A model generated the notes under the pieces. The model did not search any database and had not been told where the DNA came from. It was given only the letters and a program-made list of their open reading frames with translations. Positions 1,460 to 61,007 of a stretch of 64,000 nt of DNA are shown here, piece after piece. Origin of the DNA: a phage; sequence record PQ724393.1; one strand, written 5' to 3'. Made by a program: the position numbers and the translations under genes. Within the stretch, counting starts at the first letter, position 1, and the number at the start of each line of letters is the position of its first letter.

Positions 1460-2308
1460 TTAGTAAACGTAATCGTATATAATACCAGCTTCTAAAGCGG
1501 TGCGATGAATAATTCGACCATTACGAGATTCTTGTACATCAACCTCTGGATAGTCGGTAATCATTTTTTGAAGTGTATATCGGTGTAAATAATACGGGCT
1601 ATCTGGGTTATCGGTTTTCCAGTCTTTGCCTTCAAGAGTCATTTTCTGAATTTCATCCATGACCCACCAACCGCACCGGATATAAGCTGAATTGCGTACT
1701 GGCAATGGGTGAACGTAAGGTAATTCGCCATCTGGAACAGGTGCGACTTTAGCCGTGACTGTTACATTACCGGTTTTTGTGACAGTCACCGGGTCATAAT
1801 CAGTCGCCGAAACCACAACAGAAACTTCAATAACCTGTGAACCTTCGGCGCTTGTGTCGATTGCTAGAGTATCCGTGGTGCCAACTACAGGAGAACCGTC
1901 TTTCTTCCAAGAATAGGCAAAAGTAGCGCCAGCAGGCGCGCCGACTACATCCGCTTTAAAAGAAGCTGGAGTGCCTTCAGGAACATTAATTGATTCTGGG
2001 GTTAATGTCACAGAAACACCAGACATAGTTTTATTCTGGATAGTTAAAGTTGTTTCAGCTTCAGCTGTTTCTGGTTCGCCGTCCGCTGGTGTAGTTGTTG
2101 CAACCACTTTAATAGTCTTGCTGCCTGCTGGACCAACAGCAACATAATCCATTGCAGCAGTCACAGAAGATTGAGGAACGCCATCAACGGTCCAGACAAA
2201 TGATTCAGTACCTTCAGCTGCAGCACCGGAACCGGTCGCAGTGAAATTGGTTGTTGCTCCAATAACGGCCGTAGCCGCCAAAGGAGAAATATCTACGGTA
2301 TAAGCCAT
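1460..2308 (-). CDS. hoc: Hoc, highly immunogenic outer capsid protein (two Ig-like repeats plus capsid-binding domain)
   Basis: 282 aa; C-terminal LPYVHPLP...CGWWVMDEIQKMT...YYLHRYTLQKM...EVDVQESRNG matches T4 Hoc capsid-binding domain; N-terminal Thr/Val-rich Ig-like repeats. Confidence 0.85.
   Translation of the reverse strand: MAYTVDISPLAATAVIGATTNFTATGSGAAAEGTESFVWTVDGVPQSSVTAAMDYVAVGPAGSKTIKVVATTTPADGEPETAEAETTLTIQNKTMSGVSVTLTPESINVPEGTPASFKADVVGAPAGATFAYSWKKDGSPVVGTTDTLAIDTSAEGSQVIEVSVVVSATDYDPVTVTKTGNVTVTAKVAPVPDGELPYVHPLPVRNSAYIRCGWWVMDEIQKMTLEGKDWKTDNPDSPYYLHRYTLQKMITDYPEVDVQESRNGRIIHRTALEAGIIYDYVY

Positions 2309-28347: not shown

Positions 28348-28348
<1 letters not shown>
28151..28348 (-). 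CDS. hypothetical protein
   Basis: 65-aa ORF; its ATG overlaps the pseT stop. Confidence 0.35.
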
Positions 28349-29573
<1,225 letters not shown>

Positions 29574-30899: not shown

Positions 30900-30928
30900 A
30901 TACTAACACATCATGAGGAGATGTAAAC
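30900..30928 (-). promoter_or_regulatory. early promoter cassette upstream of alc
   Basis: GTTTAC-N17-TAGTAT on - strand. Confidence 0.5.
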
Positions 30929-32076
30929 TACTCTACCACAATTTCTTTCAAATATTTTTCAGGGATTTGGGCTTTATGGTTTTTCAAGAACACAGAGTTA
31001 ATCTGGTCTACAACCGTATCATAATTAATACCGCCTACGTACGCCTGCATAAGAATAGAGAACAACCCTGGGAAGTCCTTAAGGATTAGCTGTCCAGTAA
31101 CGGCGTAATCTTTACGGTCGCGGCCCTTGAGTTGGGAATATGCTGCTTCTAACAAGGCCAATGATTGTTCTAGGTAATCTAAATGGATGCGTTCAAAGGC
31201 ATCGATTTTCTCGATAGCAAACGAATCCGTACTGAACAGACCACGAAGGTCATCTGTTCCACCTGCAACTACAACTTCAAACAAACGTTCGTTATTGTTA
31301 ATGGAATCTTTGGTGTGATGCAGGGCGCTGTACCATGCCGTTTTGAGTTTAAAGAACGTGCCATCTTTAAGTACAAAGATAAAGCCTTCAATACCCTCTT
31401 GTTTACGGATATTGTCAACAAAATCACCTTCAGCGAGTTCATAGCTTTTAACCAAATGCTTACGCAGGGCGCCATCTTTAAACAGTTCAGCGTAAGGGAT
31501 ATACTCACCCGTTTCGTTATTACGAACGTTCAGTAAGATAAGGTTTGTTTCTTGGTAAGCCAGCACGATACGGTTGGTGGGTGCAACATATTCAAGGTTA
31601 CAAGTATACCCAGCTTTGGTGATTTCTTCTAAACGTGCGGCAAAAGCCTCGTTTTCAGGGAGGCGAAGGAAACGTAAAGAATCATGCACCATTGATGAAT
31701 GGATAGAGCCTTTAGATTTGACAGAAAGATACTGACGGTCCATGAATGTAGAAATCAGAGAACCATCTTCCTTAGCCATTACGAGGTCAATATTTTCCGG
31801 TGACAAATCTAGACCGATAGTCATAGGGTTTTCGTCGAGGTTAAAGAACTTTTGCATAGGACGAGCAGCAATACGTACCGGACCGTTCTCGTCCATTTCA
31901 AACATAATGCCTCGGCACTCTAGTGCGCCGTCTTCCAACCAATCACTGTATGATGCATAGTTATAACTAAAGATGCGATAGTTGACTCCTAGCGCACTCT
32001 GAAAGTCTTTAAAGAAGAACTTAGATTTAGTCGAGTTTTTAACCAGGGCCATCAAGTTATCATATAATTCAATCAT
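30928..32076 (-). CDS. rnlA: RNA ligase 1 (gp63)
   Basis: 382 aa; adenylation lysine motif KEDGSL; position. Confidence 0.9.
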   Translation of the reverse strand: MIELYDNLMALVKNSTKSKFFFKDFQSALGVNYRIFSYNYASYSDWLEDGALECRGIMFEMDENGPVRIAARPMQKFFNLDENPMTIGLDLSPENIDLVMAKEDGSLISTFMDRQYLSVKSKGSIHSSMVHDSLRFLRLPENEAFAARLEEITKAGYTCNLEYVAPTNRIVLAYQETNLILLNVRNNETGEYIPYAELFKDGALRKHLVKSYELAEGDFVDNIRKQEGIEGFIFVLKDGTFFKLKTAWYSALHHTKDSINNNERLFEVVVAGGTDDLRGLFSTDSFAIEKIDAFERIHLDYLEQSLALLEAAYSQLKGRDRKDYAVTGQLILKDFPGLFSILMQAYVGGINYDTVVDQINSVFLKNHKAQIPEKYLKEIVVE

Positions 32077-32513: not shown

Positions 32514-33683
32514 TTAAAAATATTTCTTGTATGACGCCATTACTTTTTCATCGACATCATTATCAATTTGTGCTACAAGGTAAGAACTGATTTCCACTTC
32601 CTGAGGAGCCGCCTGTACAGCATCAGAGTTCAGGTATTCGCGAATCCAAGGATAAGGATGGCGAGTAGGAGCATCAGTAATAGGACACGGTAAGCCACAT
32701 TGCTTCATACGAGAAACTGTCAGGTAATCGACAAAAGCACCCATGTTCTGAGTATTTAATCCAGGGCAAGTACCATCTTTGAACAGGTGAGCAGCCCATT
32801 CTTTTTCTTGACGGTTAACTTCCATGAAAATATCAACTGCTTCTTGTTCACACTCTTGAGCAATTTTAACCCATTCATCACCATCTGTACCAAGCTGGAG
32901 TTGACGGATAATGTACTGGGTGCCTTTAAGGTGAAGCTGTTCATCACGTGCAATGAACTTCATAATCTTAGCATTACCTTCCATGATTTCCATGTTTTTA
33001 TGGAAGTTAAAGGTGCATGCGAAAGATACATAAAAACGAATAGCTTCCAATGCGTTGATTACATGCAGGCAGAGGTAAAGAGAGCGCATTAGTTCGTATT
33101 TAGCGGTTTTAAGACCTTCACTGAACTCATGGTATTCTTCTAAAGCATTTTGGTATTTACGTGTTTTTTCAATAACGTCATCGTAATAACGACCAATAGA
33201 TTCGGCACGTTTCATGATAGCGTCGTCCAACAGAATTTCATCAAATACCTTAGATGGGTCTGTATAGAGGTTACGCATGATATGGGTATATGAACGAGAG
33301 TGAATGGTTTCACTAAATGTCCATGTTGCCACCCAAGTATCAAGGCTAGGGTCGGAAATCAAGGCTTGAAGTGCAGCAGAAGGAGCACGACCTTGAATAC
33401 TATCCAGAAGTGATTGATACTTCAGATTATTGGTAAAAATATTTTGCTGGAATTGTGGAAGCTTATTAAACTGGGCAGCATCCATCATCAAGTTGACTTC
33501 TTCTGGACGCCAGAAAAAACTCAACTGCTTCTCACAAAGCTCTTCGAATACTTTATGGCGTTGGATATCATATCGAGCAATACCCAATCCTGAACCAAAG
33601 AACATCGGTTCGACTAAAACATCAACTGGGGTAGTATTAAAAACTGTAGACATGTTATTCTCATTTGTTAGTGACTCATCCAT
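32514..33683 (-). CDS. nrdB: ribonucleotide reductase small subunit (uninterrupted)
   Basis: 389 aa contiguous ORF with di-iron R2 fold features; no intron interruption. Confidence 0.9.
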   Translation of the reverse strand: MDESLTNENNMSTVFNTTPVDVLVEPMFFGSGLGIARYDIQRHKVFEELCEKQLSFFWRPEEVNLMMDAAQFNKLPQFQQNIFTNNLKYQSLLDSIQGRAPSAALQALISDPSLDTWVATWTFSETIHSRSYTHIMRNLYTDPSKVFDEILLDDAIMKRAESIGRYYDDVIEKTRKYQNALEEYHEFSEGLKTAKYELMRSLYLCLHVINALEAIRFYVSFACTFNFHKNMEIMEGNAKIMKFIARDEQLHLKGTQYIIRQLQLGTDGDEWVKIAQECEQEAVDIFMEVNRQEKEWAAHLFKDGTCPGLNTQNMGAFVDYLTVSRMKQCGLPCPITDAPTRHPYPWIREYLNSDAVQAAPQEVEISSYLVAQIDNDVDEKVMASYKKYF

Positions 33684-36089: not shown

Positions 36090-37744
<1,655 letters not shown>

Positions 37745-55889: not shown

Positions 55890-56206
55890 CCTTTAACACG
55901 TTGCCAGAGGCTTTTCTGTTGGGCTTTATTAACACCAATTGAACGAATAACCGGCTGTGATTCCTGGTATTCTTTGTAGTCGGCTTTATAGACTTCATAA
56001 GCGGCTGGAACAAAGGTGCTGATTGCTGCCATAAAGTTCTTACGAATTCCCATAGAAGCTTCAGAACCGCCACGGATGATTAAGTATTTACCTGCTTTAA
56101 TCTTAACAATAGTGCCGAGATAAGCACCATGGTACCAAATGTCCCAACCTTCTTGAGTAGGTTCTGCACAACGACGAAGTTCATTAACAATATTCAGCTT
56201 GTTCAT
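55877..56206 (-). CDS. hypothetical protein
   Basis: 109-aa ORF. Confidence 0.4.
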   Translation of the reverse strand: MNKLNIVNELRRCAEPTQEGWDIWYHGAYLGTIVKIKAGKYLIIRGGSEASMGIRKNFMAAISTFVPAAYEVYKADYKEYQESQPVIRSIGVNKAQQKSLWQRVKGWFK

Positions 56207-56224
56207 AATAATTTCCTCAGTCAG

Positions 56225-56857
56225 TTAAATTGCGTTGGTTACGGTTTTGATAACTTCAGATGATACGTTTTGGAAGTCGATATAAGTATTCTTACCACCA
56301 GTCTTAATCTTAACATCAAGGTTCAAGGAAGTAAACACTTGTTTTTCTTTATCAGTCATATTATAACCGAAGATACGCATCATTCCATCACGACGGACTT
56401 CGATTTGACGAATACCATTGGTGCGTTTAGCGAATCGAACTTCAAGGTTGCTACGGTTTTCAGCAATTTCACGAATCTCGATACGGTCTTCCAACAAAGA
56501 TTTAACTTCATCAGCCAATACCACCATTTCAGGAGTAACACCACGTGAGCTACGCGTTTTACGTTTTTCCAACATCTCTGGAGCATTTTCAGAAGCGAAC
56601 AGGTCGGCAGCTTTTTGAACTAGGTCCATTGCTTCACCTGTAGCCACCAGTCCATCACCAGATTTTTCGATGAATCCTTTCTTAATCAATACACCGATGT
56701 TAGAGTTAACTACCGCAGCACTAAATTGCTCACTCAGGGCTTCACGGACTTCGCCTGAAGTGATGAAGTTATTCTTGATGATATGTACTAAGATAGAAGC
56801 GGTTTTTTCATTCAGGACGTCTTCAGAAGCTTTGATGATGTAAGTAATTTTAGACAT
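56225..56857 (-). CDS. motA: middle-transcription activator MotA
   Basis: 210 aa (T4 211); MSK.TYIIKAS.DVLNEKTA.IL...K..FIT..EVRE...VVNSNIGVLIKKG..EKSGDGL matches T4 MotA. Confidence 0.9.
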   Translation of the reverse strand: MSKITYIIKASEDVLNEKTASILVHIIKNNFITSGEVREALSEQFSAAVVNSNIGVLIKKGFIEKSGDGLVATGEAMDLVQKAADLFASENAPEMLEKRKTRSSRGVTPEMVVLADEVKSLLEDRIEIREIAENRSNLEVRFAKRTNGIRQIEVRRDGMMRIFGYNMTDKEKQVFTSLNLDVKIKTGGKNTYIDFQNVSSEVIKTVTNAI

Positions 56858-56892
56858 TTTGTATCTCCGATAACCATTTATTTGATAGGTCT

Positions 56893-56921
56893 ATAGTATC
56901 ACGTTTAAAGCAGAAGTAAAC
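56893..56921 (-). promoter_or_regulatory. early promoter cassette upstream of motA
   Basis: GTTTAC-N17-TACTAT. Confidence 0.5.
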
Positions 56922-56935
56922 ACCTTTTTGCACTA

Positions 56936-56961
56936 AACCAAAAAAGGAACCCTAAGGTTCC
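56936..56961 (-). terminator. intrinsic terminator
   Basis: ggaaccctaaggttcc followed on - strand by UUUUUU. Confidence 0.55.
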
Positions 56962-57066
56962 TTACTTTTTAAAGTGGGCTGCTATTAAACCTATAGCTAA
57001 GCCTGTCGCCAGGCCTAGGATAACAGCAAAGATACAGAGTAACAAGAACTCGACTCCAAGGCTCAT
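56962..57066 (-). CDS. 34-aa hydrophobic membrane peptide
   Basis: ATGA overlap with gene 52 stop; MSLGVEFLLLCIFAVILGLATGLAIGLIAAHFKK. Confidence 0.3.
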   Translation of the reverse strand: MSLGVEFLLLCIFAVILGLATGLAIGLIAAHFKK

Positions 57067-58442
57067 AGAGCCTCCAAATCTTTAACATACTCGGTTACAA
57101 CATCAGTGGTTTTCCAATATTGATGCTCTTCTTTCTTAGCCTTGGCTTCTAAGGCCAATTTCTTAGCTTCATCTGATGTGATATGGAAAATGTTCATGGC
57201 TACTAGTTTATCAGCATACTCGCCGTAGACTTTATTACTAGCCAATTCTTCGGTTAAAACCTTACGAGTCTTACCTTGGATAACCACTACGCCATCAATA
57301 ACATCTTTGATAAATGTGGCTTTAGCCAATGCCAGTTTGAAAGCTTCTTCAGTTTCGATGATTTTACCATCAATACGTTTCTGTACAAAGGTCTTACGGA
57401 CCTCAACGAAATCACGAATCAGTTCAACTGCATCTTCGTAAACCTTAAGTTTACCTTTCTCATTAATGACAGTCAGGTTTTGTGAACGGCGTTCGATTAA
57501 CCCGAAGTCCTTCATGATTTTTTCATGCTTCTTGTTTTCTTCGGTAGGCAATTCATATTCTTTACGAATCTTAACCTTGAAGCCGAAACCGTTCTCGTCA
57601 CAGTCATCGTCATACGTGATATACCCTTTGTCTTCTAAAGGGTCTAATACCTTGGCCACGTACGTTTCACGATCATATTTGTATGGGATTTCCGTGATAT
57701 GCATTTGGGTTCGAGATGTGAACTTATAGGTCCCACGAATCTCATAACTACCTGGTTCAGTCTCAACAACATCACCACGGAATTCAGGATAAGCCACTTT
57801 AGGCTTGGTTACACGTTTTTCCTGAAGAACTTGTAATACAGCTTTCTTAACAGAATCAAAACTATGAGGAAGAATATTAGTTGCATAACCAGTTGCAATA
57901 CCGGAAACGCCATTAAGAAGAACAGTAGGAATAATAGGCAGATAAAAAGCCGGTGGCTTATGTTCGACATCCGCATGAACCGGAGCATATTCTGTGTCCT
58001 TATAAACTTTTGCAAAGTTACTTCCAATACGAGCAAAAATATAACGAGAGGCCGCCGCCTTTTGAACCAAACGAGAACCAAAGTTACCCTGGCCATCCAA
58101 CAGTGGGAAGTTGTTGTTCCATGTGTTAGCCATCAAAGCCCCTGCTTCCTGAGCAGAACCTTCACCATGATGATATCCAAGGTCGGCTACGCCACCAGCG
58201 ATAGAAGCCAGTTTGTGGAATTTTTCTTTATTACCACGAGCCATATCAAGACAACGAGCAACTACAAAACGTTGTACAGGTTTAAAGCCGTCAATCATAT
58301 TTGGAATGGCACGGTTTTCGACAGTATACATTGCATAAGCCAATGCTTCGTTGTCGATAATACTTTTTAAGTCGCGAGGAGTAAAAGTATCGTCGTAAAC
58401 ATCTAAAGCCTGTTTAAAAAGGGTATCAATTACATCAGCCAT
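57063..58442 (-). CDS. 52: DNA topoisomerase II medium subunit gp52
   Basis: 459 aa; DLKSIIDNEALAYAMYTVENRAIPNMIDGFKPVQRF with active-site Tyr region matches T4 gp52. Confidence 0.9.
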   Translation of the reverse strand: MADVIDTLFKQALDVYDDTFTPRDLKSIIDNEALAYAMYTVENRAIPNMIDGFKPVQRFVVARCLDMARGNKEKFHKLASIAGGVADLGYHHGEGSAQEAGALMANTWNNNFPLLDGQGNFGSRLVQKAAASRYIFARIGSNFAKVYKDTEYAPVHADVEHKPPAFYLPIIPTVLLNGVSGIATGYATNILPHSFDSVKKAVLQVLQEKRVTKPKVAYPEFRGDVVETEPGSYEIRGTYKFTSRTQMHITEIPYKYDRETYVAKVLDPLEDKGYITYDDDCDENGFGFKVKIRKEYELPTEENKKHEKIMKDFGLIERRSQNLTVINEKGKLKVYEDAVELIRDFVEVRKTFVQKRIDGKIIETEEAFKLALAKATFIKDVIDGVVVIQGKTRKVLTEELASNKVYGEYADKLVAMNIFHITSDEAKKLALEAKAKKEEHQYWKTTDVVTEYVKDLEAL

Positions 58443-58446
58443 AATT

Positions 58447-58587
58447 TTACCATACTAGTGAATGAATAGCCATAATAACATCGGAAATAAAAAGCACAAC
58501 TTGGATAAGTCCGAACATTACTCCATAATACAGCGCTACTAATAAAGCAGCAAGGACTAACGAGTAGCCCAGGATTTGTTTAATCAT
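58447..58587 (-). CDS. 46-aa membrane peptide (52.1 position)
   Basis: ATGA-coupled to the upstream ORF; hydrophobic. Confidence 0.35.
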   Translation of the reverse strand: MIKQILGYSLVLAALLVALYYGVMFGLIQVVLFISDVIMAIHSLVW

Positions 58588-58748
58588 TTCTTGACCAAGG
58601 CTTCCAGAAATTTAACGATTGCATCAATTACGAACCAAGTGCAAATAAATCCAACAGCGAAAGGACCTGGAACCCACACACCAGCAGCAAAAAGGGTTAC
58701 CCACACAATAACAATCACGAGCCAGATAAAAGTATAAATCGGTAGCAT
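58584..58748 (-). CDS. 54-aa membrane protein (ac position)
   Basis: GAGGAAAAT RBS; two predicted transmembrane segments. Confidence 0.35.
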   Translation of the reverse strand: MLPIYTFIWLVIVIVWVTLFAAGVWVPGPFAVGFICTWFVIDAIVKFLEALVKK

Positions 58749-58758
58749 ATTTTCCTCA

Positions 58759-58836
58759 TTAGCGTCCGAAGACGCCTTTAGTTTTAAGATTGTTACGATA
58801 GAACTGCATCACATGTTCGTTATGGAAATTACTCAT
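58759..58836 (-). CDS. stp: Stp peptide (EcoprrI restriction inhibitor / PrrC anticodon-nuclease activator)
   Basis: 25-aa [28 protein letters not shown] matching T4 Stp as recalled; ATG overlaps the ndd stop (TAATG). Confidence 0.7.
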
Positions 58837-59285
58837 TAGTAAGCCTGCAGAACGAATTTGAAGTTATCAGCCAACATACGGTTCATTTCTTCCAGGGTCT
58901 GGAGATCTGAACTATGGTTGCGAGTGAAAGCCATTGCAATTTGTCCTTTACCAAAACCTGTAGTCAGAGGTTTCATTTTAGAAGCCGGTACATAAAGAAC
59001 TTCATACAGGATACTGTTAGTTTTCATGGTACGGTTGGCTTGAGAACGAGCTGAACGAATATTCTTAAGAACACCATCCAGACCTTGTCCTGAACGCTGA
59101 TTACCTACATAGAAGCGAGCAGCTACGATGCGGTTTTCGCCAACACCTTTAACAAAGAAATAGAAGCCTGGCTGGGCAGAGATTTCTTTAGAAGGCTTAC
59201 CGTTTTGGTATTCACCATTCTTAACATAAGCAACAGTAGTAGCACCTGCAGACAGAACGTTACGGCGAGTCATATAAGTATTCAT
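58836..59285 (-). CDS. ndd: nucleoid disruption protein Ndd
   Basis: 149 aa; ...[13 protein letters not shown]......I...RSQ..RT.......[48 protein letters not shown] matches T4 Ndd. Confidence 0.9.
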
Positions 59286-59334
59286 ATCAATTTCCTCAGT
59301 AGATTAATGTTTTGTTATCCAGTCAACGAGAACC

Positions 59335-59363
59335 ATTATAACATGATTCTCGAGGTTGTAAAC
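59335..59363 (-). promoter_or_regulatory. early promoter upstream of ndd
   Basis: GTTTAC-N17-TATAAT with TGn extension. Confidence 0.5.
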
Positions 59364-59707
59364 TATTTTTGTAGCTGTTCTAAAATAAATCCGCTCGTAT
59401 AAAAGGAAGCATTATAAACCTTATTCAGTGGGTGCAAAGCACGTCCGTATGTATCACGTAGTTCTTTGATAACATTTTCATAGCTCACATAGTAAGCACT
59501 ACGATAGTCCGGGTCCATGCTCATACGGAATTTGATGAACCGATAAAAGCCTGTTTCCGGATCTTGAACGAAAACGAAATCCGCGCTTGCCATAGTTTTT
59601 GGATTTACGCCTGGAATCATACTTTGATTGAATGATACCGTTGCCTCCTGAAGGCTGAGTTGTTTAAAGAACATAACTTTAGAGTTACCAAAAAATACTT
59701 TAGACAT
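59363..59707 (-). CDS. hypothetical protein (ndd.x position)
   Basis: start moved to ATG with AAGGAAAAT RBS; 114 aa. Confidence 0.4.
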   Translation of the reverse strand: MSKVFFGNSKVMFFKQLSLQEATVSFNQSMIPGVNPKTMASADFVFVQDPETGFYRFIKFRMSMDPDYRSAYYVSYENVIKELRDTYGRALHPLNKVYNASFYTSGFILEQLQK

Positions 59708-59717
59708 GATATTTTCC

Positions 59718-59930
59718 TTATTCAGCGTCAACAGAAATAGCCATCAGTTCATCAACGGTAAGACATTGTACACTTGGCCCTACACAAAAGCGCTTAGTTG
59801 AATCATAGAGGTCTGTAGCATTTACAGGCTGCAATTCAGTACCAACTTGCAAAGGAGAAATGCGAATCAGTTGTTGGCCGTTATGTAATACAAAGCTCTC
59901 ACCAACTGCGACATCTTTAAAAAGTTTCAT
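59718..59930 (-). CDS. hypothetical protein
   Basis: start moved to ATG with GAGGAAAAT RBS; 70 aa. Confidence 0.4.
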   Translation of the reverse strand: MKLFKDVAVGESFVLHNGQQLIRISPLQVGTELQPVNATDLYDSTKRFCVGPSVQCLTVDELMAISVDAE

Positions 59931-59940
59931 AATATTTTCC

Positions 59941-60051
59941 TCAGAAGTTAAAGAATACACGTACATGGTCAATCATAAAAACGATTGGGAAAATGCTCAA
60001 TACTACTAACAACACAAACATGTTCCAAATTGCTTTAAGTAAGTTTTTCAT
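59941..60051 (-). CDS. 36-aa hydrophobic peptide
   Basis: MKNLLKAIWNMFVLLVVLSIFPIVFMIDHVRVFFNF; GGAG RBS; follows the promoter at 60078-60106. Confidence 0.3.
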   Translation of the reverse strand: MKNLLKAIWNMFVLLVVLSIFPIVFMIDHVRVFFNF

Positions 60052-60077
60052 AATCATCTCCATTAGTTGATAGGTCT

Positions 60078-60106
60078 ATAATATCATGTCTAATGGAGAT
60101 GTAAAC
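60078..60106 (-). promoter_or_regulatory. early promoter cassette
   Basis: GTTTAC-N17-TATTAT. Confidence 0.45.
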
Positions 60107-60110
60107 TGAT

Positions 60111-60200
60111 TTATGCCAATTTCCACAACAATAAACTAAAACATACACAAATCACCGGGATACAGGTCAACCAAATAAGGCACCACATTTTGCTGCTCAT
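60111..60200 (-). CDS. 29-aa Cys-rich hydrophobic peptide
   Basis: ATGA-coupled to the upstream ORF; MSSKMWCLIWLTCIPVICVCFSLLLWKLA. Confidence 0.25.
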   Translation of the reverse strand: MSSKMWCLIWLTCIPVICVCFSLLLWKLA

Positions 60201-60454
60201 AATTCCACCTCAATGATTTCAATCTTCTTGGCTTTGATAGCTTTCTTCAAATCCGGGTAAACTTGAGTACAGTAAGAATTATTCAACTCGCCATTCACCA
60301 AACGTTGAATCTCTTCATGGGTGGTCAGATAAGGTTGGTCCGTCTCATATTTAGATAAATCCAGTCCGGTAATGCAAAAATCTTCTCCATCCGAAAAGGT
60401 TGAAAACGATACAAACTCACGGGTAATTTTATGTTTAGCGTAATAGAATTTCAT
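60197..60454 (-). CDS. hypothetical protein
   Basis: 85 aa; GAGGAG RBS; own promoter. Confidence 0.45.
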   Translation of the reverse strand: MKFYYAKHKITREFVSFSTFSDGEDFCITGLDLSKYETDQPYLTTHEEIQRLVNGELNNSYCTQVYPDLKKAIKAKKIEIIEVEL

Positions 60455-60484
60455 TTTTGTTTCTCCTCATAAGTTGATAGGAAG

Positions 60485-60514
60485 ATAGTAACACCGTCCT
60501 TGGTGTATGTAAAC
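60485..60514 (-). promoter_or_regulatory. early promoter cassette
   Basis: GTTTAC-N18-TACTAT. Confidence 0.45.
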
Positions 60515-60530
60515 TGTTTTGTGGAAAAAA

Positions 60531-61007
60531 TTATAAGGCGAGATACCAGCCGCTAAAATTACTCTTACGGACTAGCTTTTTGATGGCTTCTCTATCACCA
60601 GAGAATTTAGGAGTGAACAGGACGTCGCCTGCCTCATTTACTGAAGTGTTGAATATAATTATACAGTCTGCAACTTTATGATTCAGGAGTGGGCCTAGGT
60701 TAATCCCTGTTCCATAAGGGAAGTCACCGGAGTATCCTGTAGTACAGGAAATCCACTTAGAATCCGACTGATGGGTCTTGACCTCTACACGAAGTCCACA
60801 ATACATAGGATGGGCTAAAACATCCCATGCATAGGTATAAGGGTCGTCATGGTCTTCCAGACCGCTGTTAACATATCCTTTCAACCAATCCGCCACCATA
60901 TACTCGGCATACGTTGCAATGACACACCGAGTCAATACTTCTTTCTTATCTTGGGACGGGTCTTGACTTAAGGAATACAGTACAGTATCCTTAATCTTAA
61001 CCTTCAT
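60531..61007 (-). CDS. denB: endonuclease IV-like protein by position; start uncertain (could extend to 61088 or 61115)
   Basis: large ORF between the ndd cluster and rIIB as in T4; N-terminal extension conflicts with the upstream ORF 60997-61320. Confidence 0.45.
   Translation of the reverse strand: MKVKIKDTVLYSLSQDPSQDKKEVLTRCVIATYAEYMVADWLKGYVNSGLEDHDDPYTYAWDVLAHPMYCGLRVEVKTHQSDSKWISCTTGYSGDFPYGTGINLGPLLNHKVADCIIIFNTSVNEAGDVLFTPKFSGDREAIKKLVRKSNFSGWYLAL

Follow-up and report, generated by a model that had tools for sequence, protein, structure and literature searches.

In bacteriophage T4, the small peptide Stp targets the type Ic restriction-modification complexes EcoprrI and EcoR124I, so that restriction is blocked and modification is spared (PMC3014915; PMC12707154). 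When prrC lies within the type Ic locus, Stp unmasks the latent tRNA-Lys anticodon nuclease PrrC, in a process that depends on GTP hydrolysis and has dTTP as its co-activator. PrrC then cleaves tRNA-Lys on the 5' side of the wobble base, and the broken tRNA is healed and sealed by polynucleotide kinase (Pnk) together with RNA ligase 1 (Rnl1) (PMC3014915; PMC12707154). The T4 stp phenotype requires the peptide itself, which is also sufficient for it (PMC3014915). Loss-of-function mutations in T4 stp cluster at residues 4-14, the first 18 residues hardly vary across T4 relatives, and deletion of the eight C-terminal codons lowers both activities only moderately (PMC3014915). Beyond the T-even phages, Stp-like peptides of T1-like phages (TLS and Stevie) have already been reported (PMC4319613).

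We analysed a stretch of 64,000 nucleotides of phage DNA (record PQ724393.1), called here the window. Its nearest DNA matches are the Dhakaviruses AnYang, CLB_P2, IME341, fDHCT2, JS10 and IME08, with 91-96% identity, and these matches identify it as a Dhakavirus-like relative of the T-even phages. It is not T4 itself, as these matches and the 65% nucleotide identity of its ndd gene to that of T4 rule this out. T4 belongs to a different genus, and its Ndd and Rnl1 proteins are only 63.5% and 49% identical, respectively, to those of the window. The region of interest has the gene order ndd, stp, small hydrophobic ORF, 52.1 and 52, as in T4, RB3 and JS10. In the direction of transcription, its features are the following.

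59335..59362, minus strand: sigma-70-like promoter candidate (TTTACA, 16 nt, TG-TATAAT), 11/12 consensus matches, with an extended -10 TG.
58836..59285, minus strand: ndd, coding for the nucleoid disruption protein, 149 aa (PF06591, E 1e-66).
58759..58836, minus strand: stp, 25 codons plus TAA, with an ATG start (Pfam PF08133, phrog_6763, identity to the T4 and JS10 Stp peptides).
58761..58776, minus strand: RNA hairpin of the final stp codons (GGC GUC UUC GGA CGC U), with a 6-bp stem and a UUCG loop, according to RNA folding.
58756..58761, minus strand: tandem stop codons TAA TGA, from a DNA alignment of the window, JS10, T4, RB3 and DK-13.
58584..58748, minus strand: hydrophobic ORF of 54 aa (phrog_9347, E 1.5e-24; GRAVY 1.69).
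58447..58587, minus strand: 52.1 homologue of 46 aa, with a DUF7396 domain (PF24129, E 1.1e-22; phrog_3595; GRAVY 1.81).
57063..58442, minus strand: gene 52, coding for the topoisomerase II medium subunit (81% amino acid identity to T4 gp52; annotated in the matching phage records).

The initial annotation of this DNA had described a 25-codon ORF overlapping the ndd stop codon in a TAATG junction, and had matched its product to T4 Stp. Both the ORF and its overlap are found, at exactly the coordinates listed above. The proposed check, an alignment with T4 Stp (NP_049878), gives 25 identical residues out of 25, so that this match is correct; the length differs, as the T4 peptide has 26 residues and its terminal Gln26 is the only one missing here. 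The peptide matches the Pfam 'Anticodon nuclease activator family' (PF08133) with 72.1 bits (E 2e-20; gathering cut-off of 25 bits) over profile positions 1-25 of 26, and it matches phrog_6763 with an E value of 1.6e-20. These profile scores and the identity to T4 Stp rule out a chance ORF. All the residues from 4 to 14, where the loss-of-function mutations of T4 stp cluster, are intact in the window copy. In addition to residues 1-25, T4 and the window have in common the position of stp after ndd, the TAATG overlap, the UUCG hairpin and the TGAGGAAAATATG sequence that joins stp to the following ORF. The 25-mer is hydrophilic and basic, unlike the products of both hydrophobic ORFs downstream of it. 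Altogether, we are highly confident that the ORF is the orthologue of T4 stp in a Dhakavirus-like T-even phage, and that its product would act as it does in T4.

The gene and its location, the coupling to ndd and the partners in its function all belong to textbook T4 biology and are as such already known. Similarly, the identical 25-aa protein is already annotated as Stp in GenBank, in Dhakavirus JS10 (EpJS10_0256, ACL78482.1), whose gene is the same at 78 of 78 nucleotides. When 50,697 phage records were searched in translation, 439 of them contained the 25 residues with at least 99% identity, and stp is present at a nucleotide identity of at least 95% in 529 of 604 records. There was no match to stp in prophages or chromosomes of Escherichia coli among 5,426 complete genomes, and a structure search found no solved structure containing Stp. 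In many GenBank records stp is unannotated and lies under the label 'nucleoid disruption protein', and in OL964745, OL631483, OP870144 and OQ223305 the stp ORF is labelled 'naphthalene 1,2-dioxygenase'. These wrong or missing labels are an annotation artefact affecting a gene of 25-26 codons, and they make it plausible that stp was also absent from the ORF track behind the initial annotation, as stated there.

The DNA alignment accounts for the length difference between the two peptides. T4 and RB3 have CGC CAG TGA at the end of the gene, whereas the window and JS10 have CGC TAA TGA, so that the codon for Gln26 is now a stop codon and is followed by the former one. The old TGA is also the beginning of the Shine-Dalgarno sequence of the next ORF (TGAGGAAAATATG). 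The 25-aa form is found not only in JS10 but also in the siphovirus Ro145clw. By analogy with T4, the absence of Gln26 should be harmless, because the deletion of eight C-terminal codons has only a moderate effect on T4 stp.

The ATG of stp (58836..58834) and the TAA of ndd (58838..58836) share base 58836. The same one-base overlap exists in T4 (ndd at 165585..166040, stp at 165505..165585). Upstream of the stp ATG there is no strong or canonical Shine-Dalgarno sequence, and only an AGG is present at -10..-8; in the DNA alignment, T4 has the same AGG and the same TAATG before stp. As only this weak AGG precedes the start codon, the translation of stp is probably coupled to the termination of ndd, which is presumably the case for T4 stp too. 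The strong sigma-70-like site, a candidate identified by a consensus scan of the sequence alone, precedes the start of ndd by ~50 nt and is likely to be an early promoter for ndd, stp and the downstream ORFs. Such a promoter would be compatible with early expression of stp, as described for T4 (PMC3014915), although a consensus match is not proof.

The ORFs that follow stp are tightly packed, and the stretch 58447..58836 of the initial annotation does take in three small genes, stp being the first of them. The 54-aa ORF starts 10 nt past the stp stop codon and is preceded by GAGG, the start of the 46-aa ORF overlaps its stop codon (ATGA), and gene 52 begins four bases after the 46-aa ORF. The two small products are strongly hydrophobic, in agreement with the coupled membrane peptides of 46 and 54 aa noted earlier for this DNA. 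The 46-aa protein scores 80.3 bits against PF24129 (cut-off of 27) and is 93.5% identical to T4 gp52.1. The 54-aa ORF fills the slot that is occupied by ac in T4, but its identification as T4 ac is not supported, since it belongs to phrog_9347 and T4 Ac to phrog_2501. Identity with Ac is 38%, in a gapped alignment with a 22-residue gap, and there is no Pfam match for the 54-aa protein. As judged from these comparisons, the slot and the hydrophobic character are the only features common to the 54-aa ORF and T4 Ac. The 54-aa ORF has in common with unannotated or hypothetical ORFs of JS10 and DK-13 a GVW(V/T)PGP motif.

The two enzymes of the T4 repair step are also encoded in the window, as follows.

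28348..29256, minus strand: pseT, coding for polynucleotide 5'-kinase/3'-phosphatase (Pnk), 302 aa (PF25109, E 4e-58; AAA_33; phrog_505).
30928..32076, minus strand: rnlA (gene 63), coding for RNA ligase 1 (Rnl1), 382 aa (PF09511, PF20819, phrog_562).

PseT harbours an AAA_33 domain at residues 6-150, corresponding to the P-loop kinase, and PF25109 at residues 160-302, corresponding to the HAD phosphatase, with the motifs GCPGSGKS and FDVDGT (DxDxT). Rnl1 is composed of PF09511 (residues 53-246), with the ligase motif KEDGS (KxDG), and of the Rnl1-specific C-terminal domain PF20819 (residues 256-375); its 49% identity to the T4 enzyme extends over the full length. The counterparts of R54, K75, F77, K99, K119, E159, E227, G228, K240 and K242 of T4 Rnl1, which we take to be the essential residues from T4 Rnl1 mutagenesis, are all conserved in the alignment. 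As this ligase is only 49% identical to that of T4, we infer its tRNA-repair specificity from its domains, among them the one at the C-terminus that is specific to Rnl1, and from the conservation of these motifs. The pair shares its domain architecture and catalytic motifs with the T4 pair, and the genes are arranged as in T4 (pseT ... alc - rnlA), with alc lying between pseT and rnlA. Both genes had been described as present and intact in the initial annotation, and both are full length with their domains and catalytic motifs.

Divergence from T4 is very uneven across the circuit, the identity being 100% for Stp, 88% for Pnk and only 49% for Rnl1. No tRNA genes are present anywhere in the window, and hence no phage tRNA-Lys that could serve as an extra counter-measure. 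Elsewhere in the window, putative nrdB-like (389 aa, 32514..33683) and td-like (286 aa, 36090..36950) genes, called by position and length, are uninterrupted. Their T4 counterparts contain introns, and no mobE-sized ORF is found here between nrdB and nrdA.

The mechanism proposed earlier for this locus, in which Stp blocks EcoprrI and frees PrrC, and Pnk and Rnl1 repair the damage, matches the published T4 model. From the identity of the window peptide with that of T4, we infer that it has both the anti-restriction and the PrrC-activating functions. Thus, by analogy with T4, it would bind type Ic complexes such as EcoprrI and EcoR124I and block restriction but not modification. In hosts with prrC in the type Ic locus, this binding would unmask PrrC, which would cut tRNA-Lys, and the phage Pnk and Rnl1 would then repair the cleaved tRNA-Lys. 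The role of Stp is that of a trigger and an anti-restriction factor, and the peptide does not belong to the tRNA repair step itself.

The selective benefit of Stp to a T-even phage is not obvious, because the DNA of these phages contains modified cytosines and already resists type I restriction. This raises the question of whether a genuine Stp homologue might have its main or only useful target elsewhere, for example in another host complex, PrrC activation being an incidental liability. That Stp is kept identical in hundreds of phages, and near-identical in unrelated virulent siphoviruses, could be taken in the same sense, and the molecular mechanism by which it inhibits type Ic enzymes has been described as still unknown (PMC12707154). 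However, the published activities of Stp all concern type Ic enzymes and PrrC, and no sequence feature points to another target. Moreover, the DNA of the siphoviruses that carry Stp is ordinary, so that anti-restriction suffices as an explanation there, and the T1-like copies have been interpreted in terms of anti-restriction (PMC4319613). We therefore consider a different main target very unlikely and retain the T4-type action on type Ic enzymes and PrrC.

The stp-like ORFs of three siphoviruses were compared with the window copy.

Kagunavirus Ro145clw, L008:1501-1578: 25 aa, two residue differences from the window peptide, unannotated.
Veterinaerplatzvirus T145P1, L006:1483-1575: record without annotation.
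Tunavirus SA30RD, L007:1501-1581: GTG start whose first base is also the final one of the stop codon upstream, unannotated.

The Stp-like peptides of virulent siphoviruses have the common core xSN(F/W/H)HN(E/G)H(V/I)MQFYR. They differ from the T-even copies in that they are encoded in unrelated genomes and neighbourhoods, are mostly unannotated, have differing C-terminal tails and lack the hairpin. No ndd gene was seen beside them. Their nucleotide differences from the window gene are concentrated at third codon positions, with eight synonymous changes and only two replacements for Ro145clw, and nine synonymous and six replacement codons for T145P1. Because these distant copies change mostly at synonymous sites and keep the peptide, the codon comparison indicates that selection acts on the Stp peptide.

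Synonymous divergence between the window and T4 follows another pattern. There is a single synonymous change in stp, at His8, over ~13 synonymous sites (pS 0.077), compared with pS values of 0.67 for ndd, 0.71 for gene 52 and 0.45 for 52.1. At these values, ndd and gene 52 approach saturation at their synonymous sites. The binomial probability of finding one change or none in stp at a pS of 0.67 is 1.5e-5. Over its 75 nt, the window gene is identical to that of T4 at 74 positions and to that of Tequatrovirus HY01 at all 75. Within the Dhakaviruses, there are no synonymous changes in stp relative to JS10, with pS values of 0.25-0.35 for the flanking ndd and gene 52. This near absence of synonymous divergence suggests either a recent horizontal exchange or a constraint at the nucleotide level. 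Since synonymous sites are free to vary in the distant stp copies, we tend to favour a recent exchange between genera over an absolute constraint on the RNA.

The slots around stp also vary among close relatives. In Dhakavirus VR5, the stp slot (1957..2136 of locus L003) contains an unrelated hydrophobic ORF of 59 aa (phrog_5941), bounded by the ndd stop codon and by the conserved TGAGGAAAnTATG junction, and no stp-like frame is present in this ndd-TGAGGAAAnTATG locus. In the window, VR5, JS10 and DK-13, the next slot is occupied by a member of phrog_9347, whereas T4 has Ac (phrog_2501) there. The ORF downstream of stp in JS10 is a different phrog_9347 member from that of the window, which instead matches the VR5 ORF with 96% identity. 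The window therefore pairs a JS10-type stp with a VR5-type 54-aa ORF. On the basis of these gene contents, the stp slot and the next one are swappable cassettes among Dhakaviruses. Modular shuffling of small early genes is a known phenomenon in T4-type genomes. The near-identity with T4 and HY01, the replacement in VR5 at conserved junctions and the near-identical siphovirus peptides lead us to propose, tentatively and as a possibility that falls somewhat short of an even chance, that the 75-nt stp has not been inherited vertically but behaves as a mini-cassette that was exchanged recently. The alternative would be a second constraint, at the nucleotide level, such as the UUCG hairpin or signals for translational coupling.

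Hairpins of the UUCG type are known from T4 mRNAs. The hairpin at the end of stp comes to within 3 nt of the GAGG that precedes the 54-aa ORF, and T4 and DK-13 fold the same hairpin, the loop being UUUG in DK-13. The folding energy of the 61-nt hairpin segment has a z-score of -1.1, which is not significant on its own. The hairpin is ruled out as a terminator of stp, since it is not followed by a T-run on the sense strand, and a terminator-like hit is on the opposite strand. Similarly, it is ruled out that the GVFGR tail is kept only for the hairpin, as the codons for GVFGK in the siphoviruses cannot form it.

A rival explanation would hold that the short ORF is a chance frame or a decayed, unexpressed remnant, and that what is conserved at the ndd/ac junction is an element of the RNA or DNA and not the peptide. 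The ORF has only 25 codons and no strong Shine-Dalgarno sequence, its 3' end folds into the UUCG hairpin, and its nucleotides are near-invariant between genera at a synonymous divergence far below that of ndd and gene 52, all of which would suit such an element. Yet the distant copies vary at third positions and keep the peptide, and those of the siphoviruses lose the hairpin and retain GVFG(K/R). In addition, no Rfam family matches positions 56000..61000 at E values up to 1, and in T4 the phenotype depends on the peptide itself, which suffices for it (PMC3014915). We thus regard this explanation as extremely unlikely, and the ORF is best read as a gene coding for the Stp peptide.

Together, Stp, EcoprrI-PrrC and Pnk-Rnl1 represent a textbook case of an anti-restriction factor that is sensed by a back-up defence, itself countered by RNA repair. 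With its 25-26 codons, stp is missed or mislabelled by gene callers and in many records, so that it is under-counted in automated inventories of defence and counter-defence in T-even-like phages. Its low synonymous divergence and its cassette-like replacement may interest students of modular exchange in T4-type phages. If stp is indeed a recently exchanged mini-cassette, this would imply a selection for Stp that is strong, recent and still under way across families of coliphages.
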